Below are positions 1 through 48,575 of a stretch of DNA of 64,000 nucleotides, piece by piece. Location: positions 33,156,702 to 33,220,701 of the forward strand of contig NC_044504.1 of assembly GCF_902362185.1 (NCBI RefSeq), in the 5' to 3' direction. This DNA comes from Chanos chanos (taxonomy: Eukaryota). The notes under the pieces were generated by a model. That model saw nothing but the letters and a program-made list of their open reading frames with translations, was not told the DNA's origin and did not search any database. The translations under genes were made by a program, and so were the position numbers. Every line of letters starts with the position of its first letter. Positions within the stretch are counted from its first letter, which is position 1.

Positions 1-370
1 GCAGAAGTGGTGTTCTTGATGAAGTTGCCCCATAGGCCATCCTTGAGGTGGACTGTGCCCTTGAAGAGGTTGTTTGAGCACAGGAGGTCAAATGAAGGGT
101 TGGATCAGATATAGTAACCCATACATCTGTTAGATCAATGTGCTGCTTTCGGGGATCAGAGGGTTGTGAAATTTGATTTATCAATGGTTCACAAATCTTT
201 TTGGCCTGTTTTGTGACGAGGTCTTCTAATTTCTTTTTCACAAATTCATCTGTCTTTTCTTGTTGATAGCCTTCATACAGAGTCTTGTAATATGGCTTGA
301 AATGCAAACGAAAACAAGAAATCACCATCCATAGGACTGAGATTGCTGCTAGAAGGCCCAATCCGATGAG
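1..370 (-). CDS. CALHM/FAM26-family paralog A, exon 2 (3' end truncated by window start; stop lies ~6-8 nt before position 1)
   Basis: Near-identical to copy B exon 2 (position 1 corresponds to 3709). Minus-strand acceptor ttttcaag|CTCATCGGA gives LIGLGLLAAISVLWM...KPYYKTLYEDYQQEK.., the CALHM TM4 plus C-terminal helix pattern. Confidence 0.7.
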
Positions 371-524
371 CTTGAAAAAGATTAACAAACATTGTTACAA
401 ACTCCATTTGTAAATGCATTTTGGCCTGTTATTCCAGGTATTTCACAAAAGATTATTTTCTACTCACTTTTCAGTCCAGTACATTTTTCTGTCCAATCAT
501 TATGCAGCTATTCAGTATACTTAC

Positions 525-1001
525 ACGTGAATCAGCCTTATGTAGTCTCAGAGTTTCAAGCTCCTCAGCAGATTGTTTCTCTTTACAAGTGATTTGCTCT
601 TGCCCAGCTGTGGCAGTATGGTTTGTGGTCATAAGACACACGTACCAGTCTCCATCCATAAATGCTGTAACAATCCATAGTGTCCCAACAGTGAAGGCTT
701 TAAGGAGACATCTGAAGATAGTACATGAGTTGTAATTGATGTGGTTTCTGCATTGACCTTTGACACAGATTCTGATGGACAGCCCATCAATGATGAGTGT
801 AATCAAGAAAAGTATGATGAATGGTGCAAGCATGTAAACAAAGCAGACTGCATAGTTTTTCACTGGATCACATGGACATTCAAATTCCAGTTTGAACAGA
901 TACTGAAATATGACAAAAAGAATAACAAATGCAAATGCACTGCCTGTTAGCAATGCGGTTAGTACTTTGATGGTGAACTCTGGATGTACTGGACGTGCCA
1001 T
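525..1001 (-). CDS. CALHM/FAM26-family paralog A, exon 1 (ATG 1001..999; 159 codons; donor CGT|GTAAGT)
   Basis: Protein MARPVHPEF...FKLEFECPCDPVKNYAVCFVYMLAPFIILFLITL...AFMDGDWYVCL...LHKADSR. It matches the CALHM1 N-terminal architecture (FDFNCPC ... LLAPPLVLFLLGL ... TLLDGKCFLC). Canonical GTAAGT donor, phase 0. Confidence 0.75.
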
Positions 1002-3699: not shown

Positions 3700-4077
3700 T
3701 CATGACGGCAGAAGTGGTGTTCTTGATGAAGTTGCCCCATAGGCCATCCTTGAGGTGGACTGTGCCCTTGAAGAGGTTGTTTGAGCACAGGAGGTCAAAT
3801 GAAGGGTTGGATCAGAGAGAGTAACCCATACATCTGTTATGTCACTGTGCTGATTTGAGGGATCAGAGGGTTGTGAAATTTGATTTATCAGTGGTTCACA
3901 AATCTTTTGGGCCTGTTTTTTGACTAACTCTTCTAATTCCTTTTTCACAAATTCATCTGTCTTTTCTTGTTGATAGTCTTGATACAGAGTCTTGTAATAT
4001 GGCTTGAAGCGCAAACGAAAACAAGAAATCACCATCCATAGGACTGAGATTGCTGCTAGAAGGCCAAATCCGATGAT
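3700..4077 (-). CDS. CALHM/FAM26-family paralog B, exon 2 (includes stop TGA 3702..3700)
   Basis: Acceptor ttttcaag|ATCATCGGA. Encodes IIGFGLLAAISVLWMVISCFRLRFKPYYKTLYQDYQQEKTDEFVKKELEELVKKQAQKI..., the CALHM C-terminal half. Phase 0 with exon 1. Confidence 0.75.
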   Translation of the reverse strand: MIGFGLLAAISVLWMVISCFRLRFKPYYKTLYQDYQQEKTDEFVKKELEELVKKQAQKICEPLINQISQPSDPSNQHSDITDVWVTLSDPTLHLTSCAQTTSSRAQSTSRMAYGATSSRTPLLPS

Positions 4078-4221
4078 CTTGAAAAAGATTAACAAACATT
4101 GTTATAAACTCCATTTATAAATGCATTTTGGCCTGTTATTCACAAAGGATTATTATCTATTCATTTGTCAGTCCAATACATTTTTCTGTCCAATCATTAT
4201 GCAGCTATTCAGTATACTTAC

Positions 4222-4722
4222 ACGTGAATCAGCCTTATGTAGTCTCAGAGTTTCAAGCTCCTCAGCAGACTGTTTCTTCTTACACATGACCTGTTCGTGC
4301 CAAGCAGTGGCATTATGGTTTGTGGTTGCAAGACACACATACCAGTCCCCATCGATAAACGCTGTGACGATCCAGAGTATCCCGGCAGTGAAGCCTTTAA
4401 GGAGACATCTCAAGATGGTGCAACAGTTGTATTTGATGTGACTTCTGCACTGACATTTGACACAGATTCTGATGAGCAGCCCATCAATGGTAAGTGTGAT
4501 CAAGAAAAGTATGATGAATGGCACAAACATGTAAACAAAGCAGACTGCATAGTTTTTCACGGGATCACACGGACACTCAAATTCAAGTTTGAACAGATAC
4601 TGATACACTACAAAAAAAAACACAAGTGTAAATGCGCTGCCTGTTTGTAATGATTTCATTGCTTTGTCACTGAAGTGTGGATGTTCTTGATCATGATGCC
4701 CTGGTTGCTCTGGATGCACCAT
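4222..4722 (-). CDS. CALHM/FAM26-family paralog B, exon 1 (ATG 4722..4720; 167 codons)
   Basis: MVHPEQPGHHDQEHPHFSDKAMKSL...FKLEFECPCDPVKNYAVCFVYMFVPFIILFLITL...AFIDGDWYVCL...ADSR|GTAAGT. About 85% identical to copy A except a divergent, His-rich N-terminus. Confidence 0.75.
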
Positions 4723-10356: not shown

Positions 10357-10731
10357 TTAAGAATAGGACTCCTGTGACATTAGTGGTTCTTCTGATGAAG
10401 ATGATGCTGAAGTAATTTCTGGTGTTGAAGAGGTTTCCAGATGAAGGATTGGGTCTGATATTATAACCCACGAATGTGACTGATCCAGTGATTGATTTTG
10501 TGGATCAGTGGACTGTGAGATTTGTCTCCTCAGATTATTTAAATGCCCTCGGCAGATATTTTCAGCCTGATTTTTGGCAATCTCTTGTAATGTCTTTTCC
10601 AGGTGGGCAGCAGTCTCTTCCTGTAGATAGTCTTCATAAGCACTCTTGTAAAACGGTTTACAGCACAAACGGACACAGGAAATCACCATCCATATGACCG
10701 AAACTGCTGCTAGAAGGCTCAAGCCAATGAT
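10357..10731 (-). CDS. CALHM/FAM26-family paralog C, exon 2 (includes stop)
   Basis: Acceptor tttttcaag|ATCATTGGC. Encodes IIGLSLLAAVSVIWMVISCVRLCCKPFYKSAYEDYLQEETAAHLEKTLQEIAKNQAENI... Confidence 0.7.
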   Translation of the reverse strand: MIGLSLLAAVSVIWMVISCVRLCCKPFYKSAYEDYLQEETAAHLEKTLQEIAKNQAENICRGHLNNLRRQISQSTDPQNQSLDQSHSWVIISDPILHLETSSTPEITSASSSSEEPLMSQESYS

Positions 10732-10859
10732 CTTGAAAAATATAAATAAACATGGTTATGAAATCCATTTTTTAAACAATTTTACTTGTTATTCCAGGTT
10801 TATAGCATTATTATTTATTCATTTTCCATCAAATCCTTTTTAGCATTTAGTATACTTAC

Positions 10860-11339
10860 ACGTGAATCAGCCCTGAGGTCTTTCATAGTTGCAACTTCAT
10901 TGTTGGAAGGTCTCTCCTTACAAGCCATTTGCTCCTGCCAGGCTGTGATGTTGCCATTGTTGCTTTGTAAACAAACATACCAGTCTCCGTCAATAAACGC
11001 TGTAATGACCCATAGTAAAACAGCCACAGAGGCTTTCACGAGACGGCTACAGAACATGCAGCTGCAGCATGCTTGTCCGCACTGAGAATTTAAACATCTT
11101 GTACAAATCCTCACGAACAGTTTGTCAGTGAGAATTACAATGCAAAAAACAGTGACGGACGGAAGACCTATGTAAACCATGCAGACCTCCAAGTTTTTTT
11201 GTTTGTCACATGGACATTCAAACTCCAGTTTGAACAAGTACTGAAGAATGACAAAAAAAATAACAACTCCAAAAGCGCTGCCTCCCTGTAATTTGTTCAT
11301 CATTTTAGTGGTGAAGTGTGGATGTTCCACAGACACCAT
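10860..11339 (-). CDS. CALHM/FAM26-family paralog C, exon 1 (ATG 11339..11337; 160 codons)
   Basis: MVSVEHPHFTTKMMNKLQGGSAF...FKLEFECPCDKQKNLEVCMVYIGLP...Cys-rich loop CTRCLNSQCGQACCSCMFC...AFIDGDWYVCL...ADSR|GTAAGT. Confidence 0.7.
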
Positions 11340-19583: not shown

Positions 19584-19913
19584 TCAGACTGGGACCGTCA
19601 GATGGAACGTCGGGTCCGATATTTTACGCCATACGTCCTCCACGGAAGCTCCCAGCTGTCGGTATATCTGCTGTTGATTGTGTCCCTGTGTGTTGTCTTG
19701 CTGCTGATTTTGAAGTTCCTTCAGTGAGTTTTCACTGGCCCTTTGAACTGTTTCTGTCGCTTGTTCTTGCAGTCTTGCCTCCAGAATGGCACAAGTCTCC
19801 TCCTCCAAGTACATCTCATAAAGAGACTTGTAGTACAACTTGCAGCGAACAAGCAAAGAACTCATCACGGTTCCCAGAACTGAAATCCCCAAAATCAGCC
19901 CCAGGCCAATTAG
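19584..19913 (-). CDS. CALHM/FAM26-family paralog D, exon 2 (includes stop)
   Basis: Acceptor ttaaccag|CTAATTGGC. Encodes LIGLGLILGISVLGTVMSSLLVRCKLYYKSLYEMYLEEETCAILEARLQEQATETVQRASENSLKELQ..., the CALHM TM4 plus helical tail. Confidence 0.7.
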   Translation of the reverse strand, partial: LIGLGLILGISVLGTVMSSLLVRCKLYYKSLYEMYLEEETCAILEARLQEQATETVQRASENSLKELQNQQQDNTQGHNQQQIYRQLGASVEDVWRKISDPTFHLTVPV

Positions 19914-20132
19914 CTGGTTAAACAGAAAAAGGGGGGCGGGGGTGCAAAAAAAATCCGTTAGCTTTGTGAATATGTTGTTTTTCAAATATGATCAATTTAC
20001 TGAACAGAACAGCATAGTGAAAGTGTTTTATATTGTAGTATTTGCTATAACATTTATATTAGGTTTACATTTACCTTAGAATCTGCCAGTTCCACTACAA
20101 TTTTTCTTTTCTCTTAGTATCGGTGTACTTAC

Positions 20133-20699
20133 GCGTGACTCACTTCTGTATTTTCTGATGGTCTCGCTCTCTTGCGGGGAAGGTATATCCTTACAAAGAA
20201 TTTGTTCATTCAGGTCTGTATTATTGCTTTTAATGGTTTGCATGCATACATACCAGTCTCCATCAATGAATGCAATTATAACCCAAAGTGATCCAACAAA
20301 AAAGACTTTAAGTACGTGTTTACATATCATGCCCAGATAGTACCACCCTTCTTCGCCAAAACCAGTTGGGCAGAAGCAGTATCCATGGGCACAACAGCAG
20401 CACTCAAAACTGTGACAAAATTCACTGGTGCAGCATCTTCTGTCTGAGCGAATGCAGCACCTGCAGACGAAACACTGGCACACCTTCAGGAGAAGTGGGT
20501 CCATTAGAATGAGAAAGAAAAAGAGTGCGCCAACAGGTAAGACCATATAAAGCCAGCAATGCCATTTGGTTTCCTCTGGTGACAAGCAGGGACAGCTGAA
20601 AACGAACTCGAAAAAAATAAGCGTAACCACAATCAGCAAAACAGTTTTCACCGTCATCTTCTTCAGCCGTTCAGAGATAAGAGGTTTAGTAGGTGGCAT
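20133..20699 (-). CDS. CALHM/FAM26-family paralog D, exon 1 (longest ORF ATG 20699; 189 codons; a second in-frame ATG 14 codons downstream is an alternative start)
   Basis: MPPTKPLISERLKKMTVKTVLLIVVTLIFFEFVFSCPCLSPEETKWHCWLYMVLPVGALFFFLILMDPLL... A Cys-rich loop of about 50 aa (CQCFVCRCCIRSDRRCCTSEFCHSFECCCCAHGYCFCPTGFGEE) is followed by ...AFIDGDWYVCM...SESR|GTAAGT. Confidence 0.7.
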
Positions 20700-24042: not shown

Positions 24043-24167
24043 TTAGAGACCTTCCTTAGTTATGTCTTGTTATTACCGTAAAGGGGTTTGCGTTTATCAC
24101 ATATCAGTGTCTGTCTTAGTGACTCTCTCTTCTTCTAAGCAAGTTGTCTCTCTCCTGCACTGTAGCA

Positions 24168-24293
24168 ATGGCAGTGTTCGAGAGCTGTGCTGTGGTTTTA
24201 GAACTCAAGCATTTGCCTTACAAAGAGAAGAAGAGGTTCACTTTGGCCATAACAGATAATGGAGGAAGTGTGTGCTACGTTGTCAACAAACAG
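24168..24293 (+). CDS. parp4: PARP4 exon 1 (start codon; BRCT N-terminus)
   Basis: MAVFESCAVVLELKHLPYKEKKRFTLAITDNGGSVCYVVNKQ|gtaaag. Aligns with human PARP4 MVMGIFANCIFCLKVKYLPQQQKKKLQTDIKENGGKFSFSLNPQ. Confidence 0.85.
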
Positions 24294-24518
24294 GTAAAGT
24301 TGATATTTGTTTCCCTTTTTTAATCTTTATTTCTTTCTACACTCTAAAATTACTTCTAGTCAGTATAGATGTCTAATTATTGTCGTTGTCTTTTGAGCGC
24401 CATACCAGGTCCAGCGGTTAGTTAGACGAAGCAGCAGATGCGAATCTAAAATGAACTAATGTGCTGAAAGTGTTTTGAATACGTAATGATTGGTTTTGCG
24501 TCTTCTCGTCTCATCTAG

Positions 24519-24711
24519 TGCACTTTTGTAGTCGCAAGCAGCTGGGACGATTTGAGCAGCAGCCGTCAGCGTAGCGTAAAGAAGCACCAAATCCCGGTCG
24601 TAGGGCTGCAGTATGTGTGGGACTGTCTAGAGAAAAGAGTCCGCCTGCCTGTGGAGGGGCACGCTCTGGTTCCCGTAACGCCTCCACCCAGCTCTACTCT
24701 TCTGTGGTCAG
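24519..24711 (+). CDS. parp4: PARP4 exon 2 (BRCT)
   Basis: tcatctag|CTFVVASSWDDLSSSRQRSVKKHQIPVVGLQYVWDCLEKRVRLPVEGHALVPVTPPPSSTLLWS|gtacag. Aligns with human CTHIILDNADVLSQYQLNSIQKNHVHIANPDFIWKSIREKRLLDV. Confidence 0.8.
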
Positions 24712-25564
24712 GTACAGACCACGTATCACTGTTTTGTTTTTTGTTTTGTTTTGTTTTGTTTTGTAGGAAACTCCTATTCATAGGCCCAGTAACCATATCT
24801 GTCTGTCTGTGTTTGTGTATGTGTGTCACCCAACTTTACTCAATAATCTGCACAGTTTGCTTCTGAAAATCCTAGAACCTGCCCGCATTTGTGTGTGTGT
24901 GTGTGTGTGTGTGCGCTCTCCAATAAAACCCCACCTCAGCCATGTTATCTACACAGTTCATGTCTGTGTACCAGAATAATGATGTCTACATTGTTATCTA
25001 GTAAATGACAATAAAATTTGAAACTTGAAAATTGAAACCAGTAACCTTAATGTTTGTGGAAATGTTTGCATATGTTGGTTTGGAGCTATTCATTCAGGGT
25101 GTCTTTGTCCAAAACCCTTATGTATTCATACCCACACACTTCACAAATGTTACGTAGCGCAACACATTTTGAATAAACGCATCATTGTTACTCACAAAAA
25201 AATTCTTCTTTCTTACCCCAGTTGTAAATGTTTTTATAACTTTTCACACATTCCGTTGTCACTGGAATTTCTGTTTCTTTGTCTCTACATTGTGAGGGCA
25301 AGGGAGGGGTACTTGAGATTACGACAGCCTGTGGTCTTGATTAGTCAGTGTGTTCTATGCTGTCAGTGCACTTGTGTATTTGTTGTATCTACCTTAAGAT
25401 TATTTTCCTACGAGAGTGACTGGAAAGATCTTTGAGAATAGCAGGACCAGACAGACGAACGCAAGGTGACAAGATGTGATAAAGACAGATATAGGTGCTT
25501 CATGTCAGATATCGCTCTGTTCACTTAAAAGACCAGCTTTCCTTCTGCTTGGCTGTTTGTACAG

Positions 25565-25694
25565 ATTTCACTGTGCCTAAGCCATCTGAAGAAGCATGGA
25601 AGTCCAGAGGTCAGCCTCTACCCCCGAGCTCTGCTGCTCAGAGACGCAAAGCGGAGGATCCAGCCAAGGATGACAACTCCCTGGCTAAAATCAG
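25565..25694 (+). CDS. parp4: PARP4 exon 3
   Basis: tgtacag|DFTVPKPSEEAWKSRGQPLPPSSAAQRRKAEDPAKDDNSLAKI|gtctgt. Phase-consistent linker region. Confidence 0.6.
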
Positions 25695-25949
25695 GTCTGT
25701 CCTGGTCACCCGTGCAATCAGAAGTCTTAAACTCTCCTCCATGTCATGTCAGTCTAATTTAGACATCTTTAAACTCCATATATACTGCATCCTTAAATGT
25801 CATAATGTCATATTGCATTATTTCTCATTGTTCATTCATAAACATAACTAAGCATTTGTATTTTTGGCTAAGGTGTCTTACTATGATTATTGGTTATTTG
25901 TGTTGTGCTGTATATGCTTAGCATTGGTTTTTTATTATTATTATTGATA

Positions 25950-26009
25950 GAGTCTACACTGAAAATGACCTTTGCGTGCCAGAATTTCCCAGAAATTTTC
26001 AAGTGGCCA
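25950..26009 (+). CDS. parp4: PARP4 exon 4
   Basis: ttgatag|RVYTENDLCVPEFPRNFQVA|gtactc. Aligns with human TEFGMQNVEIPHLPQDFEVA. Confidence 0.6.
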
Positions 26010-26167
26010 GGTACTCAGTATTGGAAAAGGTCAGTCTGTAATCCGTTTGAAAACCACAGTGGTTATTTGACAGTTACAGAATGTGGTTCTGACAGTCATG
26101 TCCACAAGACCTACTCTGCGTGGCTGCGTGAACATGGACTTGTTTGTGTGCTCTAGGTTAATCCCAG

Positions 26168-26258
26168 GACAGGGTCAGTTTTGGAACTGCAGAGTGCCAA
26201 AGGAGAAACAGGACAGATGTATCGTGTAGTGTGTGTTATTGTGCCTGACTGGAAAGAG
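26168..26258 (+). CDS. parp4: PARP4 exon 5
   Basis: aatcccag|RTGSVLELQSAKGETGQMYRVVCVIVPDWKE|gtaagg. Aligns with human AVVVELQCSRDSRDCPFLISSHF. The acceptor was chosen to keep the reading frame. Confidence 0.6.
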
Positions 26259-26610
26259 GTAAGGGATAGTTCAAAGCCGCAGAGCATCAGGGTTAGGTAT
26301 TTATCAATCCAAGCCTTAAAAACTATATCTCCTGTCCATATATGAAATTCTTTCTACTCCTTTTGTGTAATAGCTGCTTATTTAGTAAATAGTGGATTCA
26401 GCTTAAGACTGCAAGACACAGAATGACTCGAGATGCTCCTTCGTAAAACTGTAGTTACTCAGTAATTACAAATAATCAAACCTGTTACAGAATTCCTTTT
26501 TTTTTAAGTTTTCTAAGAACTAAGCTGTGATAGTTTTCAGAGTGATGGTAATAACAGTGAGAGTGATTAAGCTGCTGATGATAAATGGCATGCTGTGTTC
26601 TCCCGTGCAG

Positions 26611-26769
26611 GAGGCCGTGGTGCGGGATAAGTTAGTGCACTGCAGTAAGTCTGAGGAGGCTCTGGACGTGTATCTGATGATACAGAAAGAGCTGCAGAGT
26701 AAGAACTTCGTGGAGAGGGACACTCTTCCTCCAGAGGCCAAGAACCTGGGCTCCCAGAGCCTACAACAG
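26611..26769 (+). CDS. parp4: PARP4 exon 6
   Basis: cccgtgcag|EAVVRDKLVHCSKSEEALDVYLMIQKELQSKNFVERDTLPPEAKNLGSQSLQQ|gtctgt. Aligns with human RRQFAIKKTSEDASEYFENYIEELKKQGFLLREHFTPEATQLASEQLQ. Confidence 0.8.
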
Positions 26770-27146
26770 GTCTGTCACCATAAGCAGCACTATCACCAGC
26801 ATACGGGTGCTTCTGAACATACTCAGTGTTGCCTCTGTTTAGACATCCATCCAAGAGGCTTTCCGTCTTCTAATGTGTCATCAGCATACATTACAAATAA
26901 ATGCGGGCAAAACAAATGAATAAAGCGAAATAATTATTTGTCATGTGCTTAGCTTGATTACAGCTCAGTGTTCTCTCGTTATCTAAAGATGAATAATTTA
27001 CTGAGTTAATTTAAGTGGATCATTTTTTAAAATGTGACAGATATGCCGCAAGGCATTTGTCATTTTTTGGCCACAGTGAGGTGTAAGATTTCGCTTTGTT
27101 TGGCTCTTAGGGATTGTAAATCCTTATTTACTCTTTTTATCAACAG

Positions 27147-27284
27147 CTTCTGCTGGAGGAGAAGCTCAGCTGTAGCACGCTGTCACAGGAAGTGGGCGCT
27201 TTCGTGGAGCTCGTCTGGACAGAGGCCATCGGTTGCCTCGGAAACATTCTCACAGTTCCCTTCAGCAGCATCAGTCTTAATGAC
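27147..27284 (+). CDS. parp4: PARP4 exon 7
   Basis: caacag|LLLEEKLSCSTLSQEVGAFVELVWTEAIGCLGNILTVPFSSISLND|gtaatg. Aligns with human ALLLEEVMNSSTLSQEVSDLVEMIWAEALGHLEHMLLKPVNRISLND. Confidence 0.8.
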
Positions 27285-27416
27285 GTAATGACTGAATTTT
27301 TTTATACGGGACCATATTCTGTAAATGTATTTGTAGTCATTTGTTGTTTGTGTTGAAAACAAGCGTGAAGATGCACTGTTTGTGTGTTTGCATCAGTTTC
27401 TGTGCACATCCTCTGC

Positions 27417-27516
27417 ATGTGTGTTTGTGAGCCTGTGTAATGAACTGTGCCCAGGCTTGTGAATGTGCACATGTGTGTGTCCACATATGTGTGTGTGTAG
27501 CTGTGTGCATGCATAC

Positions 27517-27551
<35 letters not shown>

Positions 27552-27625
27552 TAGGCTGGTTTTTGTGTACAGGTGTCTGTATGTGTGTATGCAGGTGTGC
27601 GTATGTTTATGTGTGTGCGTATGTT

Positions 27626-27673
<48 letters not shown>

Positions 27674-27715
27674 AGCGTGTGCAGTTCTTTGTGTGCACGG
27701 GTGTGTGCGTGTTTG
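27417..27715. repeat. Large compound (GT)n/(GY)n microsatellite, about 300 bp, in PARP4 intron 7
   Basis: Long tgtgtg runs interrupted by tatg/tgca, including pure (GT)14 and (GT)20 tracts. Produces the spurious Cys/Val-rich ORFs 27440-28063 and 27463-27789. Confidence 0.9.
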
Positions 27716-27745
27716 ACCGTTTTGAACAGCTGTGTGTTAATGCAG

Positions 27746-27904
27746 GTGAGCAGAGCAGAAGGACTGCTGCTCCAGGCTCAGAGGAGTAAAGACGAAGCGG
27801 AGATTCAGACCCTGTTCGAGGAGGTCAACAGTCTGCTGCCTCACAGAATGCCCGAACACCCTGTCAAAGCCAAGCTTGTTTCACAGAAACTAGACCTCTG
27901 TCAG
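27746..27904 (+). CDS. parp4: PARP4 exon 8
   Basis: aatgcag|VSRAEGLLLQAQRSKDEAEIQTLFEEVNSLLPHRMPEHPVKAKLVSQKLDLCQ|gtaaca. Aligns with human VSKAEGILLLVKAALKNGETAEQLQKMMTEFYRLIPHKGTMPKEVNLGLLAKKADLCQ. Confidence 0.8.
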
Positions 27905-28295
27905 GTAACATCACAATGTCAACACAAAACACACACACACACACAAACATGCATTCAACCACCGCCATTCACCAGTCCTATTTTTCACACTCGTCCAGCA
28001 GCTGCAAAAATGCCAGCAAAAAGAAACAAGAGAAACACAAGAACTCTCTGTTTGCCCTCATGAGGTGTAACCAGTTTTTTTTTTTGTTCAGTACACTCAA
28101 AGGGACAGGTAAAAGACCATTTACGAAGTGAGAATTTATCCGTTCACAGAACCAGTGAACAGACATGTCTGTTTCCCATTTAACCCGTTTAGCTGGTATT
28201 TTGACAGAGACAGATTATAACATGAGCTCCTCACACCACAAAGAGTGAAACCACATCCTCCCAAAGAAACAAGTCACGTAACCTTTTATCACATT

Positions 28296-28570
28296 ACGAA
28301 CCCTTACTATCACATTTACAAACCCTTACCATCACATTTACAAACCCTTACCATCACATTTACAAACCCTTACCATCACATTTACAAACCCTTACCATCA
28401 CATTTACAAACCCTTACCATCACATTTACAAACCATTACTATCACATTTACAAACCTTACCATCACATTTACAAACCCTTACCATCACATTTACAAACCC
28501 TTACCATCACATTTACAAACCATTACTATCACATTTACAAACCCTTACCATCACATTTACAAAGCCTTAG
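28296..28570. repeat. Minisatellite of about 12 copies of a 22-bp unit (acccttaccatcacatttacaa) in PARP4 intron 8
   Basis: Perfect or near-perfect head-to-tail repeats. Produces the spurious repetitive ORF 28245-28586. Confidence 0.9.
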
Positions 28571-28618
28571 TTTGACTAGGCAGTGAAAAGCTAACCAAGA
28601 CCTACTGTCTTCTTCTAG

Positions 28619-28770
28619 TTAATCAGAGATATGTTGAACGTGAGTGAGACGACCATGAGAAGCGTATTTCCTTCTTGTTTGGGAAAATACCGTGCTCTTA
28701 GATGCAGCATCGACAGCGTTCCTGCAGGCAGTCCGGAATTTCACTCTGTCCAGCTGTTACTACAGGACAG
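28619..28770 (+). CDS. parp4: PARP4 exon 9
   Basis: tcttctag|LIRDMLNVSETTMRSVFPSCLGKYRALRCSIDSVPAGSPEFHSVQLLLQDR|gtactg. Aligns with human LIRDMVNVCETNLSKPNPPSLAKYRALRCKIEHVEQNTEEFLRVRKEVLQNH. Confidence 0.85.
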
Positions 28771-28895
28771 GTACTGTCAAAGGATGAATGCTGTGTGTTT
28801 GAGTGTGGCTGTGTTTGTGCTCTTGTTTCTGCTCAGAAGTTTGTGTTTTTGTTCACTTAAGCTTGTCTATCTAATACACTGCATCACTCCCTCAG

Positions 28896-29027
28896 GCCCA
28901 TCCAGATTATGCAGGTTTTTTCTGTGAGAAGAGGGGTGGAGCTACAGATGTTTAGGGAGGAGCTTGGGAATATCAGGCCCCTCCTTCATTCAACCAGTTC
29001 TAGCAGCTTTGTGGGAATACTTTCTCG
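28896..29027 (+). CDS. parp4: PARP4 exon 10 (PARP regulatory/catalytic region)
   Basis: ccctcag|PIQIMQVFSVRRGVELQMFREELGNIRPLLHSTSSSSFVGILSR|gtgaga. Aligns with human PVDVLQIFRVGRVNETTEFLSKLGNVRPLLHGSPVQNIVGILCR. Confidence 0.85.
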
Positions 29028-29126
29028 GTGAGAAAATCATGACCGTGCTGTTGTCAGTGAAATACAATGAAAACCAGCCGTCGGATAACTTACTGAGCAC
29101 CGTTTATAATGTTCTCCTCTCTCCAG

Positions 29127-29225
29127 GGGACTGTTGCTTCCTAGAGTTGGAGTTGAGCAACATGGGATTGAAAGGACAGACATAGGCTTCCTGGGATCTG
29201 GCATCTACTTTAGTGACTCTCTCAG
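29127..29225 (+). CDS. parp4: PARP4 exon 11 (PARP catalytic)
   Basis: ctctccag|GLLLPRVGVEQHGIERTDIGFLGSGIYFSDSL|gtcagt. Aligns with human GLLLPKVVEDRGVQRTDVGNLGSGIYFSDSLS. Confidence 0.85.
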
Positions 29226-29543
29226 GTCAGTAAACTAAAATGTGTGAGAGTTTTTTGTTTGTTTGTTTCCTCATTTGTGTGTCTGTTTGTTGAGAATGCA
29301 AGAGAGTAATATCTGATGGTCCGCCATTCCAGACAAGAGTACTGTGATGCTGTCCTTTCCATAGAGACATTGTGTAGTTACCATAGAGACATTGTGTAGT
29401 TACCATAGAGACATTCTGCAGAACCGAGGCAGAAAATGGGTCTTACGGGGCCTTTCACCAGCAGCAGCATGAAATCTTGTGAAGGTCCACTTTGTGTACG
29501 CGGCATCACTAGTGCTAACTCTGAGACATATTCTGTATTGTAG

Positions 29544-29727
29544 CACCAGTGTGAAGTACTCTAAACCCAGTGTCACCGATGGCTCGCGTCTTCTGCTGGT
29601 ATGCGAGGTGGCTCTGGGTCGCTGCAGGGACCTTCAGAAGAAAGATACCACGCTGACCTCTGCCCCCAAAGGCTACCACAGTGTGCACGGAGTTCGCCGC
29701 TCCCCAAAAGTTCACTCTGAATTTGAG
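29544..29727 (+). CDS. parp4: PARP4 exon 12 (PARP catalytic core)
   Basis: ttgtag|STSVKYSKPSVTDGSRLLLVCEVALGRCRDLQKKDTTLTSAPKGYHSVHGVRRSPKVHSEFE|gtgctt. Aligns with human TDGTRLLLICDVALGKCMDLHEKDFSLTEAPPGYDSVHGVSQTASVTTDFE. Confidence 0.9.
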
Positions 29728-30157
29728 GTGCTTTTTTTACCTCCTTTTTTTTTAATGTTTTCTCCTTTTTCTCCCAGTTTGGGATGCTCAGATATCAGCA
29801 GTCTTGTAAGTAACCTCCTTCTTCTGTAATCACAGTTGAGGTGAATGAGGTTGCACCTGCCTCTTCCAAGGCGCATTGAGTTGCATAGTACGGCCAGCTG
29901 ACAAAGAACTAATTGACTATCAGTCACTGTGAATTACCACAGCTACACAGGGCCAGGACTCTGGCCAGTTAATCCGTCCATGGAACACAACTCGACAAGT
30001 GTCACCCAGTTAGGATTTGAGCCAGTCCCTCTAGATGTAGGGCAAATCTCTGTTAGACAATGCCTCAGTTGAGTACCACATCACTTAAGAGCCAGGCTCT
30101 TTAACACAAACAGTCCTTTACTTTTTTTCCTACTACGGGTGCAATCCCGTGTTTCAG

Positions 30158-30305
30158 GACGATGAGTACGTGGTGTATAGCCCGGACCAGGTCAAGATTA
30201 AGTATGTGGTCCAATACACGCTGGAGGGAGATCAGATGAAGACGTTTCAGCCACACATTGACATGTCTTTGGAGCTGACGGAGCCTGCTGTGACCTCTGA
30301 TACTT
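30158..30305 (+). CDS. parp4: PARP4 exon 13 (end of PARP catalytic domain)
   Basis: gtttcag|DDEYVVYSPDQVKIKYVVQYTLEGDQMKTFQPHIDMSLELTEPAVTSDT|gtgagt. Aligns with human DDEFVVYKTNQVKMKYIIKFSMPGDQIKDFHP. Confidence 0.9.
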
Positions 30306-30586
30306 GTGAGTCCTTAACGTTTTGGTGTGCTTCGTTCAGAATGACTGTCGCTATGGATACCATCACAGAACTATAAACGTTACCGACGGACACAGTGCAA
30401 AGTCTTTGAGTTTGACTCTCTAATTAAGTGTGTGTCCTGATCATCACTGATAAAGACAACCTGACATACTACCAGGGTTTAATCTCGGTTTCAATCTAGG
30501 GCCCATTAATCATAAGAAAATCACTGTTGCATCATGTACAGCACTCCATTTGGTGTTGACTGTTGTGTATATGTTTGTTCTTGTAG

Positions 30587-37929: not shown

Positions 37930-39077
37930 GCTGTCCAGGATATTATTCAGGGGGGTCCTCTCAGTGAAGATGAAATTATAGGAGCTTGTGCCTTATCAAT
38001 GCCCCTTTCCCGTACTGTTCCTGGTCCTCCTCCACGTCCGCCCGCTTCTTCCATGCCCTCTCCTCGTACTGGTAGTGGTTTTGTGCCTCTTCCTCCTCCT
38101 CCTCCTCCACCTCCTCTTCATCCTACTTTGATATGTGATTCTCTTTCTTCACCTCCTCCTTTCATGTTTGGTTCTCTTCCTCCTCCTCATCTGACATCTT
38201 ATGCTTCTTCCCTTGGTTCTCAGTCTTCCTGCTCTTTAGATTATGAGCCTCCTGCTTTTTTGCCCATAAAAGGTCTCCCTCCTGTCAGAGGTTCTGCTTC
38301 TCCTCCTCTGCCTTCCAGGCGCTTGTCTGCTCTTTCTTCCGATTTGGGTTACGCTTCTCCTTCTCTGCCTTCCAGGCGCTTGTCTGCTCTTTCTTCTGGT
38401 TTTGCTTCTGCTCCTCCTCCTCTGCCTCTCATGGGCTTGTGTGCTCCTCCTCCTACTCCTCCTCCCATGTGCTTGTCTGCTCCTTCTTCCGGTTTTGCTT
38501 CTGCTCCTCCTCCTCTGCCTCCCATGCGCTTGTCTGCTCCTCCTCCTCCTCCCGTGCGCTTGTCTGCTCCTTCTTTTGCTTTTGGTTCTGCTCCTCCTCC
38601 TCTGCCTCCCATGCACTTGTCTGCTCCTCCTCCTCCTCCTCCTCCTCCCATGCGCTTGTCTGCTCCTTCTTCCGGTTTTGCTTCTGCTCTTCCTCCTCTG
38701 CCTCCCATGCATTTGTCTGCTCCTTCTCCTCCTCCTCCTCCCATGCACTTGTCTGCTCCTTCTTACAGTTTTGCTTCTGCTCCCCCTCCTCTGCCTCCCA
38801 AACGCTTGTCTGCTCCTTCTTTCAGTTTCGGTTCTGCTCCTCATCATCACCTTTTTGGTTCAATAAAAGGCAAAGTATCAAGAGCTCGTAAACCTCGCTC
38901 TGAACGTGAGGACATTCAGACTATTCACAACAAAGCTCAGTGTTTATCAGTAAATTCTGAAGAATTCGACCGTGGTTTAATAAAAAGTGACCGTGACCGT
39001 GACCGCCACCGTGCAGACATGGTTGTACCCATGGATCTATCCAGGAGAAAAGCAGGCGTAGTAACCATCGGCGCAAG
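37930..39077 (+). CDS. parp4: PARP4 exon 32: 1,148-nt exon encoding a proline/serine-rich repetitive C-terminal region (MVP-interaction region equivalent)
   Basis: ctccccag|AVQDIIQGGPLSEDEIIGACALSMPLSRTVPGPPPRPPASS...then about 9 tandem units of ~19 aa such as (LSAPSSGFASAPPPLPPMR)...SERED IQTIHNKAQ...KAGVVTIGAR|gtttgg. The donor gives phase 2, which is required by the conserved downstream exons. Confidence 0.65.
38290..38850 (+). repeat. Intragenic coding tandem repeat (about 57-nt period, CT/CCT-rich) inside PARP4 exon 32
   Basis: Reiterated ...ctgcctcccatgcgcttgtctgctccttcttccggttttgcttctgctcctcctcct... units encode LSAPSSGFASAPPPLPPMRL variants. Low-complexity antisense ORFs are produced on the minus strand. 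Confidence 0.8.
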
Positions 39078-39164
39078 GTTTGGGAGGTTTTTTTTAAAAA
39101 TTGCACTTTTTTGGATTACGTGTGTGCTCTCAGGTGTTTAAATAGTTCTCATGCTGCTGTTTCA

Positions 39165-43424: not shown

Positions 43425-43787
43425 TTTCAAACGGTTTTGTGGAAAGCAGTGACCTCTTTCCTGTGGGGAATCTGGGGCAGGATGTAATCCTGCACTGCAG
43501 GTTCAATCCCAGCAGTGGGACCGGGGTGAAAATGAATGATGTGTCAATCACCTGGGAGAAAAAGGGACTCAGCGGAGTGGTGTACCAGTACAAGAATGGA
43601 GCAGCACAATTAAAAGACCAAAACCCACTATTCACAGAGAGGACTCAGCTTTTTACAGATTTCATCACGCTGGGCAATGCCTCCCTGCTGCTGAGGAGCG
43701 TAAGGATGGAGGATGCCGGCGTTTACCAGTGTAGCGTTAGTGCTCCTGCAAGCCGAGGGACTATCAGTGTACATCTCAGAGTGGCTG
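43425..43787 (+). CDS. vtcn1: VTCN1 (B7-H4)-like exon 2: IgV domain (363 nt, phase 1/1)
   Basis: tcccag|VSNGFVESSDLFPVGNLGQDVILHCRFNPSSGTGVKMNDVSITWEKKGLSGVVYQYKNGAAQLKDQNPLFTERTQLFTDFITLGNASLLLRSVRMEDAGVYQCSVSAPASRGTISVHLRVAG|gtatga. Aligns with human B7-H4 GEDGILSCTFEPDIKLSDIVIQWLKEGVLGLVHEFKEGKDELSEQDEMFRGRTAVFADQVIVGNASLRLKNVQLTDAGTYKCYI. Confidence 0.85.
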
Positions 43788-43884
43788 GTATGACATCCTA
43801 TCCTCTGGGGGAGGAAGGAAGGGGGGGGGGGTGCAAAATTGTGTATGTTTGTGTACATTGTGTGTGGGTGTGTGAGTGTGAGTA

Positions 43885-43929
<45 letters not shown>

Positions 43930-44329
43930 TGGGGGAAAAAGAGAATTCACATTAATAAAGTGAGATGTCATTAAAAGGTAGAGAAAAAAAAAGACTTAGT
44001 CGCGCTCGTAAGTCATAAATCAAAAACACTCCGAACTGTAGCTATTAATAGAACGGTATTTCAACAAGGTTTAAATGCTGAGAGACTTCCTGTAACTAGT
44101 TGCTTTTATGTTTAGACCCATTAACAAAGGCCCTTAAGATCATACAAATATTTAAATATTGGGCATTATTCTGCAGGGAAGACCCATTTGTCCATGTGTT
44201 TGGTTCTGTCAAAGAAATCCAGGCCATGATTTGAACTGTATCACATATTCTATGATTTTAGGATCTTAGGATTTCTTCCTGATAATCAGAAAGCATAAAA
44301 TGTATGTCACAAATGTAATGTCTTTCCAG

Positions 44330-44991: not shown

Positions 44992-45919
44992 TATACAGTG
45001 GATGTCCCAGCAGATACATGAACTACAGGCATTGGCCATGACGCTGTTTTATGCAGATTTACTGGTCTACTACCACAAGGTCTTTTTGTCAGCCTGTAAG
45101 CAGAGAAATAAAACAGTCTGTCCTGCATGTTGCAATGTAGGATGCATGATCTCAAGGTTGAGCTGTTAAAATGAGATGGAAATGAGATCATAGATATTTA
45201 TAGTTATTCTAGGAAATCAAAGTACTTGGTCATCATGGAGATGTGTTGTTCAGATAGAGAGAAAACTGTTGTCTTGTTGTGCTTAGGCTACTGTGTATGT
45301 GAACATCCAGGTGATTATTTGAATTTACATCGTCTCATTTTTTCTCTCCCATAATCTACCGTTATACCCCTCTCCCTCTCCTCAAATTGTGAACTTGTAG
45401 TTTTTCTAAATAAAAACAAAATAAATGCGTTTTAAATAAACACCAAGTGACGTTTTGTACTCTACTTGGGATCATTAGTCTTTCAAACCAGCAGATGGGG
45501 ACACTAGGATTTGCACCGCGTAGTTAGCTTTGCTAGGGTTCGCTTAAATGCCTTTAAAAACAGGAGTTTTGCACATTAGGCCACGCCTGTGACCAGTGTG
45601 ATGATTGGTCTGAGTCTTGGGGTTTCGAATATCATGTGCAAGAATACACAAGAGATAACTGTAACACTTTAAAAGCTCTGAAGTGTGGTAAAGTAAAGTA
45701 GGCTATAAAAAGCATATGTTGTGCTGCACATATAGAAATAAAGAAGCTAGGCTGTAGAGTGGGCAACTGTTTTGAGCATTCAGTTGAGTTTAAGTCCCAC
45801 TTTTTTCCCAATTGAGTTTACTTTTCGGTGAACTCAAACTTTAGCATAACTTCATACTGCCAATACGCTGCCTTTGTTACTTCGTTATTTTAACATTTAG
45901 GTTGAAATATCCCAGTAGC

Positions 45920-46419
45920 ATGTCACATTGTAACGACAATCCGACACAAGAAGAAGAAAAGGGACCACAGAAACCAAAATCAGATGAAAGGTCCCCCCTG
46001 AATGATAACGGGTATGTCACCAACAACTCTAAAGCTATCTGTGGCGTTTGTAAGCGAATGTATAGAGACCCAAAAATTCTTCCTTGTCTTCATACGTTTT
46101 GTGCTGACTGCGTCCGACAACTTGAACCGTTCTCAGTTTTGGGAGTTAACGGTAAACCGCTCTCACGAGAAAATCCGGCGCTTTTACGCGACCAAGCAGC
46201 AGTAACGGTTTTATGTCCCGAATGTGACTCCGAAGTGGACCTTCCGTCATCGGGGGTGGATGGGTTGACCACAGACCACCTTGCTCTTGACGAGGTCTTT
46301 ATGGAAACGCTTTTGATCGAAAACAGCGTAGTATGTGACCTGTGCGCCGATAGCGATGCTGAGAAACGTTGTGCGGTGTGTTCCGTGAATCTTTGCGAGT
46401 TCTGCAGCAAAGCCCACAG
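45920..46419 (+). CDS. trim45: TRIM45 exon 1 (RING plus B-box 1)
   Basis: MSHCNDNPTQEEEKGPQKPKSDERSPLNDNGYVTNNSKAICGVCKRMYRDPKILPCLHTFCADCVRQLEPFSVLGV...LCPECDSEVDLPSSGVDGLTTDHLALDEV...VCDLCADSDAEKRCAVCSVNLCEFCSKAH|gttagt. Aligns with human TRIM45 CPLCLGLFKAPRLLPCLHTVCTTCLEQLEPFSVV...ILCPVCDAQVDLPMGGVKALTIDHLAVNDV...VCDLCNDREVEKRCQTCKANLCHFCCQAHR. Confidence 0.9.
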
Positions 46420-46614
46420 GTTAGTGGCTGTACAGTTTGATTTTTCGTACTCTATTCCAAACTTCTTACTTGGCCTGATTGCATTTTCATAGTAATTGTT
46501 AGTTATCACTAGCGTTTTTTACAAATTCAAAATTTTTGTTTGAGGATATTTAATAGTCTGATACTATGAGCTCCAATCTAGGAGTGTCATAATTTGTAAT
46601 GATTGGTTCTGCAG

Positions 46615-47366
46615 GAGACAGAAGAAGACAGCTGCTCATTCCATTCAAAACCTGGAAGAGCTGAAGTCTCAGGGTCATCTCTCCAGACCTGTCATGTGCT
46701 CTCTGCACCCAGGCCAGGAACTACGTCTTTTCTGTGACCCTTGTGATATCACTGTCTGCATCGAGTGTGCCTCCACTTTTCACAGAGACCATAAGTGCAC
46801 CCCTACTCAGGACGTCATCAATCGCCATGGAGACAATATCCGAGAGCTTGTCACCGGAAGCCTTCGGCCACGGCTCGAGCGCCTGGAGGAGTCCTTGCGT
46901 CGGGTAGAAGTTTCTCAGGAGGCTTTGCACACGAAGGCTGAGACGCTGGCAAAAGAGATAAGAACGTTCGCAAGAAGCTACGCCATTGCGGTAGAAACCC
47001 ACTGCTGTTCCCTGCTACGCACACTGGAGGACATGAGGCTACAACGAAGGAACCAGCTCCATCTGCAGAAGGCACAGCTGCAACAGGCGTTGTGTGACGC
47101 ACGGGGCGCGGTGGAGTTTGCTGAACGTTTGCTCACGTGTGGGTCAGATGTGGAGATTCTCAGCACCAAGGGGGTCACCATGAGGAGGCTGGTAAACCTG
47201 GTGGAGTCTGGATATGACCCCCACCCAGCAACCGTCGCCCAGGACAGTGGGAGCAGCATTTGCTTCCTGCCTCTGGAGATCGCAGGACAGGTGGACGGAT
47301 ACCCTGTGGTAGGAGTCTTACATGACAAAACTGTGGACCCCGGCAAGTGCACCATCCAGGGAGAAG
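46615..47366 (+). CDS. trim45: TRIM45 exon 2 (B-box 2, coiled coil, start of filamin repeat)
   Basis: ttctgcag|RRQKKTAAHSIQNLEELKSQGHLSRPVMCSLHPGQELRLFCDPCDITVCIECASTFHRDHKCTPTQDVINRHGDNIRELV...LQKAQLQQALCDARGAVEFAERLLTCGSDVEILSTKGV...DPGKCTIQGE(G)|gtgagg. Aligns with human RRQKKTTYHTMVDLKDLKGYSRIGKPILCPVHPAEELRLFCEFCDRPVCQDCVVGEHREH...LQKAQLEQLLADMRTGVEFTEHLLTSGSDLEIL...DPAKCVLQGED. Confidence 0.9.
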
Positions 47367-48575
47367 GTGAGGAGTGGCACTCCATGAAAGGCATATCAAT
47401 TACACACTTAGTTCTCAGACCGATACTCCACCAGCCGTGGCAGTCCAATAACGTTGTGCTTAAGGTTAATGTCTTCATATACAGACATATCATAGGCAGT
47501 CTATACTGTAAACTGTATGAGCCTCCAGTACATGATAATTAGAAACACTGATACTATCACATTTTTTATCACATTTTTATCACTCTGGTATTGTTTTAGT
47601 CAGAGCGCTGTGGAAAAAGTACCCGCATAGCTGTCTTGGTCTAGGTCACGTCCTGAAACTTTGCCAAATAACTGTTTTCCTATGTAAACACAAATACACG
47701 CACACGTTACATAAACACAAAGCAAACCTCTTTGCATGGATGGATTACAAGTAGGTGACATGAGTAAGGGCTGCATCACAGACCAGGACTCGCGAACCAG
47801 GGTTTTTGAGCTGACTCTGTGTGTAAATAAAGCTGGCGTTTTTTGTTTTGTTTTAAACCTGGATATATCCTTTGTTCTTATTACAGAATCTGAATATTAC
47901 TGCATGTGCATGCTTTTTTTTCTCTTGCCTGGTGATATTATGGTGTCTCAAACAAAGTTCGATGAAAGACGTATGAATCAGTCCGTAAGGTGACGAGAAA
48001 TATTCTTCCCTCCAAATGTCCTTCCTGCTTGTATCAGCAGTCATGTTTGTTGGTGTATCACTGTGTGTTGTAAGGTTGTCATCATTATTCAGATGTGATG
48101 CAAATTGGATGTTTAGTGCCAAAGAGATGGTGAGCATGTGAAAGCCTACATTTGCTGCCTCACCATGTGGAGCAGCTGAAGCTGTAAAAACCCAGTGTTT
48201 CTCAACAACAGCTGGTGCAGTCATGGAAGACAGATCCCCAGTTCCTAGTGGCGGGTCAGTCACAGGCTCTGTGATTAGAGGATAGCTCAGCTTCAGTTCA
48301 GTACATTCATGGAGATATCAGATGTGGAGAAACTCTTGTCTTGCAAATATAATGTTCTATACACGACTCTCCATTTCGGTTCCTCAACAGCCTAATCAGT
48401 GTTTAAAAAAAAAAAAAAAAAAAAGTACACCTTCAGTTTACTTTTTCGCAGAGGGAATTAAGCATGACCGGACATCCACTGGTTACGTGCTTACCGCAGC
48501 ATTTTTAAAACTGTCCTGTGTCAGCACACAAGTCCTTCCATCTGTTTGATCTCTGATGGTCTAACACCCCGTCAG

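Follow-up and report, generated by a model that had tools for sequence, protein, structure and literature searches.

Among channels of the CALHM family, CALHM1 is S-acylated at C100 and C207 (in mouse) and CALHM3 at C99, C200 and C204, all of which are cytosolic juxtamembrane cysteines, and S-acylation of these two proteins affects their gating and their association with rafts (PMC10903462). The four extracellular cysteines of CALHM1 form two disulfides between the first and second extracellular loops (EL1 and EL2), C42-C127 and C44-C161 in human (PMC8560582), and the conserved positions of the pattern shared by CALHM proteins have been catalogued (PMC13183375). Here we describe a stretch of 64,000 nucleotides from Chanos chanos (assembly GCF_902362185.1, contig NC_044504.1, positions 33,156,702 to 33,220,701 of the forward strand; hereafter the window), which contains four tandem CALHM-like genes, copies A to D, all on the minus strand. 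Our subject is copy D, the protein of which served as the tblastn query that located the other three, and which carries a dense cluster of cysteines between its second and third transmembrane (TM) helices.

The cluster comprises 14 cysteines in 37 residues (C74 to C110, 38% Cys), as against 3.1% Cys in the remainder of the protein, giving a binomial probability of approximately 2e-12 for at least 14 of 37. It thereby reaches a density of the cysteine-string type (at least about 10 Cys in about 20-40 residues), and its cysteines are arranged as C-x-C, CC, CCCC and C-x-x-C. A previous sequence-only reading of this DNA had put the content of the loop at some 20 cysteines in about 50 residues, which is an overstatement, as the maximum in any 50-residue span of the copy D protein is also 14. 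The 44-residue peptide that it quoted, CQCFVCRCCIRSDRRCCTSEFCHSFECCCCAHGYCFCPTGFGEE, is nonetheless present letter for letter in the minus-strand translation of 20349-20480, and the CCCC run and CC pairs that it singled out are found at residues 100-103 and at 81-82 and 89-90, respectively. Minus strand frame 1 of positions 20330-20490 reads LKVCQCFVCRCCIRSDRRCCTSEFCHSFECCCCAHGYCFCPTGFGEEGWYYLG, while both other frames contain stop codons, and the cluster sits within a 207-codon open reading frame (ORF) at 20076-20699 on the minus strand. Tandem Repeats Finder detected no DNA tandem repeat under the loop, which is therefore not a trinucleotide microsatellite, and a (TGY)n origin of the present loop sequence is ruled out by the same result. 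Furthermore, when the isolated loops of copy D and of two other cysteine-rich relatives were compared with Pfam, no family was matched even at E<=10, metallothionein or otherwise.

Copy D is an intact two-exon gene with a spliced product of 298 amino acids (aa), which matches the Pfam family Ca_hom_mod (PF14798) at 35.8 bits against a cutoff of 25 bits, copies C and B scoring 82.5 and 70.5. AlphaFold2 folds the protein into four TM helices and a long C-terminal helix (helices at 17-33, 41-66/68-78, 116-146, 175-213 and 216-263), with a mean predicted local distance difference test (pLDDT) score of 79.5. The best 26 matches of this model in a Foldseek search of the PDB are all CALHM or CLHM-1 chains (probability 1.00, TM-score 0.4-0.64), and every significant match is a CALHM structure, with CALHM5 at the top, at a sequence identity to the solved CALHM structures of 13-20%. 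Queried alone with phmmer against PDB sequences, copy D gave no significant CALHM match (best E 0.63, with matches to BmrR that are noise) and is therefore very divergent; a word-indexed homolog search with copy C also returned no matches. A profile built from 73 sequences of the fish family, the window copies included, matches human CALHM6 best (E 3e-28), and also CALHM2, 5, 1 and 4 and C. elegans CLHM-1 (down to 1e-13). In this 73-sequence alignment C36-P-C38, C152 and C169 of copy D are invariant or nearly so, P55 in TM2 and W139 in TM3 are invariant and D146-G147, at the TM3 kink, are nearly invariant. These hallmarks align with C42/C44, W114, D121 and C127 of human CALHM1 (the sequence of which was checked against PDB 8gmr_B), and W139 lies 7 residues ahead of D146, matching W114 and D121 of the human protein. 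As judged from sequence and predicted fold, copy D is a divergent yet genuine member of the CALHM family, as the sequence-only reading had proposed for these genes, and its assembly as an oligomeric large-pore channel is predicted from this membership.

The placement of the cluster in the TM2-TM3 loop, which had likewise been claimed, agrees with both the AlphaFold2 model and the alignment: it begins 7 residues past D67, the counterpart of the TM2 kink, and ends approximately 6-8 residues short of TM3a, and residues 79-115 are modelled at low confidence (pLDDT 53-56). Given the CALHM homology, the cysteines equivalent to those of the extracellular CALHM disulfides and an NNT sequon in EL2 of copy D, we strongly infer that the TM2-TM3 connection with its cysteine cluster is cytoplasmic.

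The relation of the cluster to the acylation site of CALHM1 is less direct than had been suggested. In killifish CALHM1 the intracellular loop consists of 9 residues (Arg83-Ala91), compared with about 37 low-confidence inter-helix residues in the copy D model, and Cys100 lies on TM3a, facing the bilayer, 20 residues ahead of Asp120. With the register taken from the DG motif, this site, which is C100 in mouse and C101 in human (20 residues ahead of Asp121), corresponds to C126 of copy D and, in copy C, to C97 (CMFCS, compared with YMFCS in human CALHM1). C126 stands 16 residues past the last cysteine of the cluster, and the window sequence is the only one of the 11 orthologs to have a cysteine there. 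As the CALHM1-equivalent site thus falls outside the cluster, the latter belongs to the same cytoplasmic element but occupies a different position in it, and the statement that the cysteines sit where CALHM1 is palmitoylated holds for the element and fails for the exact site. According to the alignment, the cluster replaces and expands TM2b and the short loop.

Loop-bearing orthologs of copy D were recovered from Serrasalmus rhombeus, Cyprinus carpio, Puntigrus tetrazona, a further cyprinid assembly, two Hemibagrus species, Clarias gariepinus and further contigs, and are 42-57% identical to copy D over their full length. Comparison with other teleost orthologs, which had been proposed as a check, shows that the cysteine-rich loop is conserved, since 12 of its 14 cysteines each occur in 9 or more of the 11 aligned sequences (the exceptions being C95, found in 7, and C110, confined to the window) and 11 are invariant in an alignment of four species, while two otherwise conserved cysteines have been lost from the window sequence (F113 and L122). 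The total number of loop cysteines in the orthologs is 13-17, or 9 in Clarias, and positions near TM3 turn over; the Clarias loop is shorter by 12 residues, including 5 cysteines, and that of Hemibagrus by 4 residues. The cysteine columns are on average 84% identical to copy D, the remaining loop columns 42% and the TM2/TM3 flanks 57%, and the difference between the first two of these values argues that purifying selection acts on the loop cysteines themselves; the conserved positions swap TGC and TGT codons. Conservation in the loop region extends to E99, A104, G106, Y107, P111, G115 and E117. Of the aromatic residues, F98 is invariant in the four-species alignment and Y107 occurs in 7 of 10 orthologs, with F77, F94 and F109 also present in copy D, and neither of the loop histidines, H96 and H105, is conserved among the orthologs.

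Gene order gives an indication of the age of this loop. In the window copy D lies head-to-head with a PARP4-like gene (Table 1), and in Serrasalmus its ortholog stands in the same orientation to a gene bearing BRCT, PARP, VIT and VWA Pfam domains. The PARP4 position is occupied in Puntigrus by a long divergently transcribed gene (1,621 residues, with no Pfam hit on record) and in Cyprinus by a BRCT-encoding fragment, so that the synteny is seen at three of the four ortholog loci examined; at the Hemibagrus locus (P0005) PARP4 does not adjoin within 10 kb. Moreover, a paralog of the A/B/C type with a cysteine-poor loop (1 Cys) lies downstream of the Serrasalmus ortholog, as in the window. The shared PARP4 synteny and this downstream paralog argue that the D type and its cysteine string predate the split of the window species from these orders and that, as far as gene order and alignment indicate, the string is an old feature of one ortholog group, older than the cypriniform/characiform/siluriform split. 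An expansion described as lineage-specific is consequently not specific to the species, being kept in Cypriniformes, Characiformes and Siluriformes, although the description is true of the gene lineage. An Arapaima sequence (P0015, with 8 cysteines in a 42-residue loop) was considered as a D ortholog from Osteoglossiformes and set aside, as it does not adjoin PARP4 and its orthology is unproven. The arrangement of copy D and the PARP4-like gene also suggests that the two share about 3.4 kb of bidirectional intergenic DNA.

Across the family, the loop was measured in the 77 representatives in which both of its anchors could be located, its length varying between 14 and 91 aa and its cysteine number between 0 and 26; most loops are about 15 aa long with 1-4 cysteines. 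Outside the D clade, cysteine-rich loops occur in P0023 from Menidia menidia (26 Cys in 91 aa), P0051 (15 Cys), P0039 (11) and P0100 (10). The nearest relatives of these four, identified with the loop masked, have shorter loops with fewer cysteines (some still 5-7), and the cysteine-rich loops outside the D clade appear to be independent expansions, a view drawn from nearest-relative comparison rather than phylogeny. The 91-aa loop of P0023 is split by a Ser/Asn/Pro-rich spacer, and the 74%-identical P0020 has the spacer with 7 cysteines; a MetaClust record (P0006) shows eight consecutive cysteines in a D-type loop. Cysteines are also present in the TM2-TM3 loops of human CALHM6 (GCCSSARASC) and CALHM2, and, together with the 1-4 cysteines of most relatives, this suggests that the D loop exaggerates an ancestral trait. 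On this reading it would be a hypertrophy of that trait, 1-4 juxtamembrane cysteines, and not a new domain. A second cytoplasmic site also deserves mention: a CC pair stands directly after TM4 in most family members, near the second CALHM1 acylation site, and D orthologs have R-W-K in its place (D residues 210-216), with a single cysteine (C213) in this region of window copy D and three in copy C. In the D clade the cysteine load may have moved from the TM4 site to the loop.

What might so many cysteines do at this position? By analogy with CALHM1 and CALHM3, we lean slightly towards the view that the stretch is a cysteine-string-like, multiply S-acylated membrane anchor, which would extend the S-acylation control of those two channels. 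The loop thiols would be free in the reducing cytosol, beginning a few residues from the membrane end of TM2, and many of them would be S-acylated by zDHHC enzymes, so that the TM2b-loop-TM3a element, which protrudes, would be fixed against the inner leaflet. Were the channel oligomeric, acyl chains would then form a collar around the pore complex, and acylation could adjust gating and voltage dependence, as well as trafficking or the entry of the channel into ordered lipid domains, as the two better known channels suggest. We favour this model because the number and density of cysteines are kept while positions near TM3 vary, and because deletions of 4-12 aa are tolerated. Several points weigh against it. 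Between 11 and 12 cysteine positions have been fixed since the three orders split, and the conserved non-cysteine residues named above, between E99 and E117, hint at a defined structure or binding site; together, these fixed cysteines and conserved non-cysteine residues would suit a metal-thiolate fold at least as well. Additionally, the distal cysteines (CCCC at 100-103, C108 and C110) lie about 30-40 residues from the end of TM2 and are not strictly juxtamembrane, although no more than about 10 residues separate this distal half from the beginning of TM3a. Finally, the Logan contigs of orthologs that were checked for transcripts (P0007, P0008 and P0157-P0159) include no spliced one, being genomic or unspliced because the exon 1 donor is read through into the intron, and no transcripts of the window species were obtained.

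The main rival to S-acylation is metal-thiolate binding, in which the loop would be a metallothionein-like module whose cysteines bind Zn2+, Cu+, Cd2+ or Fe-S and which regulates the channel as a sensor, buffer or structural clasp. The cysteine content and its C-x-C, CC, CCCC and C-x-x-C patterns would fit such a module, as would the cysteines shared by four species or by at least 9 of the 11 orthologs, the several conserved non-cysteine positions, a low-confidence AlphaFold2 beta-hairpin at 102-109, and a cytoplasmic setting in which thiols are reduced and available. However, the loop on its own has no Pfam match, its histidines are not conserved, and it contains aromatic residues (including F98 and Y107), while we know of no classical metallothionein that does. 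The deletions in Clarias (5 cysteines among them) and Hemibagrus are similarly awkward for it, and the continuous variation in cysteine number and spacing across the family, from 0 to 26, would not be expected of a fixed cluster geometry, so that we think this explanation rather improbable, if still a serious candidate. Less probable again, in our estimation, is a sensor of redox state or nitric oxide (NO), in which the thiols would undergo reversible oxidation, S-nitrosylation or glutathionylation, or link subunits through disulfides under oxidative stress, and so couple channel opening to redox state. Vicinal cysteine pairs are redox-reactive, and the loop contains them as CC and CCCC. S-nitrosylation is reported to control CALHM1 activity (PMC11059852), and CALHM6, the best human match of the fish-family profile, is described as immune-expressed (PMC10068325). 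Yet a sensor would not need 14 cysteines, and the start of the cysteines at the membrane interface is left unexplained; redox or NO sensing would, however, be compatible with acylation.

A more prosaic explanation would be that the loop is an artefact or lacks function, as an unspliced intron, part of a decaying pseudogene or a neutral low-complexity expansion. The read-through of the exon 1 donor in the ortholog contigs, the want of complementary DNA from the window species and the lability of loop length across the family could all be cited in its favour, but we consider it very improbable. Copy D has an intact ORF over both exons and canonical GT/AG sites, the coding part of exon 1 ending in ...RSESR ahead of a gtaagt donor, and the acceptor ctgtttaaccag being followed by CTA at the start of exon 2 at 19913, from which the frame runs to a stop codon at 19584. 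All of the family-invariant residues are present, the same exon structure is found at three orthologous loci, and the frame is kept in every ortholog examined. At each genomic locus examined the orthologous loop lies within one open exon, with length differences in multiples of three. Moreover, synonymous sites are saturated between copy D and its orthologs, whereas the rate of nonsynonymous substitution (dN) is low, at 0.21-0.40 in the loop, much the same as the 0.30 of the TM core, and the ratio of nonsynonymous to synonymous rates (dN/dS) in the loop is 0.16 for the closest pair, Puntigrus and Cyprinus. The twofold higher conservation of cysteine columns, the lack of a DNA tandem repeat and the inclusion of the loop in gene models of NCBI assemblies and in RefSeq records all speak against this explanation as well, and the earlier positions that copy D is no pseudogene and that its loop is exonic are both well founded. 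Inspection by eye found a single donor-like site for an internal intron, AAG/GTGTGC at K72/V73, and the acceptor-like AGs that could pair with it lack a polypyrimidine tract and would yield introns either of insufficient length or out of frame; in view of this and of the conservation, an internal intron was rejected. Another sequence, P0009, was considered as a spliced transcript and rejected, as it proved to be an incomplete gene model from a genome assembly. In the cyprinid assembly L007 (4274-5033), some 190 bp, whether an additional intron or inserted DNA, separate codons 42 and 43 in exon 1 of the D ortholog; annotation there gives a model cut to 123 aa, and the loop is intact with 16 cysteines.

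The three tandem neighbours of copy D have two exons, as does copy D itself, with a phase-0 donor at which ...DSR is followed by gtaagt. Copy C had been credited with a shorter cysteine-rich loop, and the peptide quoted for it, CTRCLNSQCGQACCSCMFC, is exact, with 7 cysteines in 19 aa; for copies A and B about 5 loop cysteines had been given, close to our counts of 4 and 6. The loop of copy D is much expanded relative to all three paralogs, as claimed. Copies A and B (1-1001 and 3700-4722, minus strand) share about 90% DNA identity over some 950 bp, including the intron and flanks, and so look like a recent tandem duplication. A motif, [DE]xW..[IV]S[DN]P..HL, is found at the C-termini of copies A to D (at 19599-19640 for D), of orthologs and of distant fish relatives, and is in part common to human CALHM6 (EWQQIS).

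Several other features of the window lie in or beyond the PARP4-like gene. On the plus strand, a (GT)n-type microsatellite read as CVCVCV in an ORF (27440-27700) and a minisatellite encoding repeated HIYKPLPSHLQTLTITFTN units (28245-28586) are both situated inside introns of the PARP4-like gene. A 380-codon ORF at 37999-39141 (plus strand) encodes a proline-rich repeat (variants of SAPPPPLPPMRLSAPS) with no Pfam match, and may represent either an independent element or an exon of low complexity belonging to the PARP4-like gene. Further plus-strand ORFs encode an immunoglobulin (Ig) V-set domain (43439-43963), a RING finger and B-box (45902-46492) and a second B-box (46694-47542), a combination suggestive of a TRIM-like gene that includes an Ig domain; at the Hemibagrus locus L006, the D ortholog has as its upstream neighbour a gene with V-set, RING, B-box and Filamin domains. 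No match was returned when the whole window was scanned with Rfam.

Table 1 Positions of the cysteine cluster, the CALHM-like copies and the adjoining PARP4-like gene within the window
Feature	Position	Strand	Details
Cysteine cluster C74-C110 of copy D	20370..20480	(-)	translation, Cys count and binomial test, AlphaFold2, 11-ortholog conservation
Copy D exon 1	20133..20699	(-)	codons 1-189; ORF and splice-site inspection; encodes TM1, EL1 CPC motif, TM2, Cys-rich loop, TM3, EL2
Copy D intron	19914..20132	(-)	219 nucleotides, GT...AG, phase 0
Copy D exon 2	19584..19913	(-)	codons 190-298 and stop; TM4, C-terminal helix, C-terminal W..ISDP..HL motif
Copy C	10357..11339	(-)	exon 1 10860-11339, exon 2 10357-10731; 284 aa; 7 loop Cys
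Copy B	3700..4722	(-)	exon 1 4222-4722, exon 2 3700-4077; 292 aa from first ATG; 6 loop Cys
Copy A	1..1001	(-)	exon 1 525-1001; exon 2 starts at 370 and continues past window start; 4 loop Cys
PARP4-like gene, 5' part	24152..30327	(+)	colinear tblastx matches to the gene adjoining the Serrasalmus ortholog

Full-text searches of the literature found no description of cysteine-rich CALHM loops or of teleost CALHM-like expansions, and the database labels of these proteins are limited to 'hypothetical', 'uncharacterized' or 'CALHM5/6-like' predictions. We regard the finding as a modest, family-level insight into annotation and not as a new kind of system. The D-group loop has nevertheless been kept across three large fish orders, and similar loops appear to have evolved anew in other teleost CALHM-like clades. 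Multiple acylation of the loop, if it occurs, would make it a ready model of how the density of lipidation controls a large-pore channel; should the loop bind metal or sense redox state, it would represent a new regulatory principle for the CALHM family. A bolder and frankly speculative proposal, to which we give little credence at present, is that a poly-cysteine collar on the cytoplasmic side arose repeatedly among teleost CALHM-like channels, apparently on four or more independent occasions, and is more than a lipid anchor, namely a regulatory module unlike that of any characterised large-pore channel, either a metal- or redox-sensing gate or an organiser of acyl-lipid nanodomains around the pore. 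Solved CALHM assemblies contain 8-11 subunits per channel, and at 9-17 cysteines per subunit the collar of the D group would amount to roughly 100-150 thiols per channel.

Outside the CALHM family, three cysteine-rich systems invite comparison. The string of CSPalpha (DNAJC5) contains 12-14 cysteines, is heavily palmitoylated and anchors the protein to membranes (PMC9712954), and resembles the copy D loop in its cysteine density and poly-cysteine runs. The two are not homologous, however: CSPalpha is a soluble J-domain chaperone that needs its string for membrane attachment, whereas the string of copy D, an integral membrane channel, has a TM helix on either side, and in the light of its failure to match Pfam (E<=10) the loop is best described as an analogue of the cysteine-string domain and not as a member. 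The endodomain of the SARS-CoV-2 spike has 10 cysteines in about 20 residues and is S-acylated at multiple sites, of which the juxtamembrane clusters are the most important (PMC8950683). It is likewise cytosolic and directly follows a TM helix, in a pattern that resembles CQCFVCRCC of copy D, but it is the C-terminal tail of a viral single-pass protein rather than an inter-helix loop, and there is no homology. Metallothioneins share a content of about 30% Cys in CxC, CC and CxxC motifs, and differ in that the copy D loop has no Pfam match, contains aromatic residues, is tethered to the membrane at both ends and varies in cysteine number among orthologs.

Within the family, the closest solved relatives of the D group are human CALHM6 (FAM26F), by profile, and CALHM5 (FAM26E), by Foldseek, and some fish members are named 'CALHM5-like' or 'CALHM6-like' by NCBI; we assign no one-to-one human ortholog on the strength of these similarities. 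CALHM6 shares with copy D the presence of loop cysteines and the C-terminal W..IS motif, with 3 cysteines in its loop compared with 14. The acylated cysteines of CALHM1 and CALHM3 belong to the same family and fold and are likewise cytoplasmic, being placed in the TM2b-loop-TM3a element and immediately past TM4, but CALHM1 has a single cysteine in that element where copy D has 14 in addition to C126, and C126 itself, the equivalent of the CALHM1 site, lies apart from the cluster and is not conserved in the D orthologs. With its 14 cysteines, as opposed to one or two cytosolic acylated ones, the D group may thus be seen as a natural extreme of the CALHM1/CALHM3 design.

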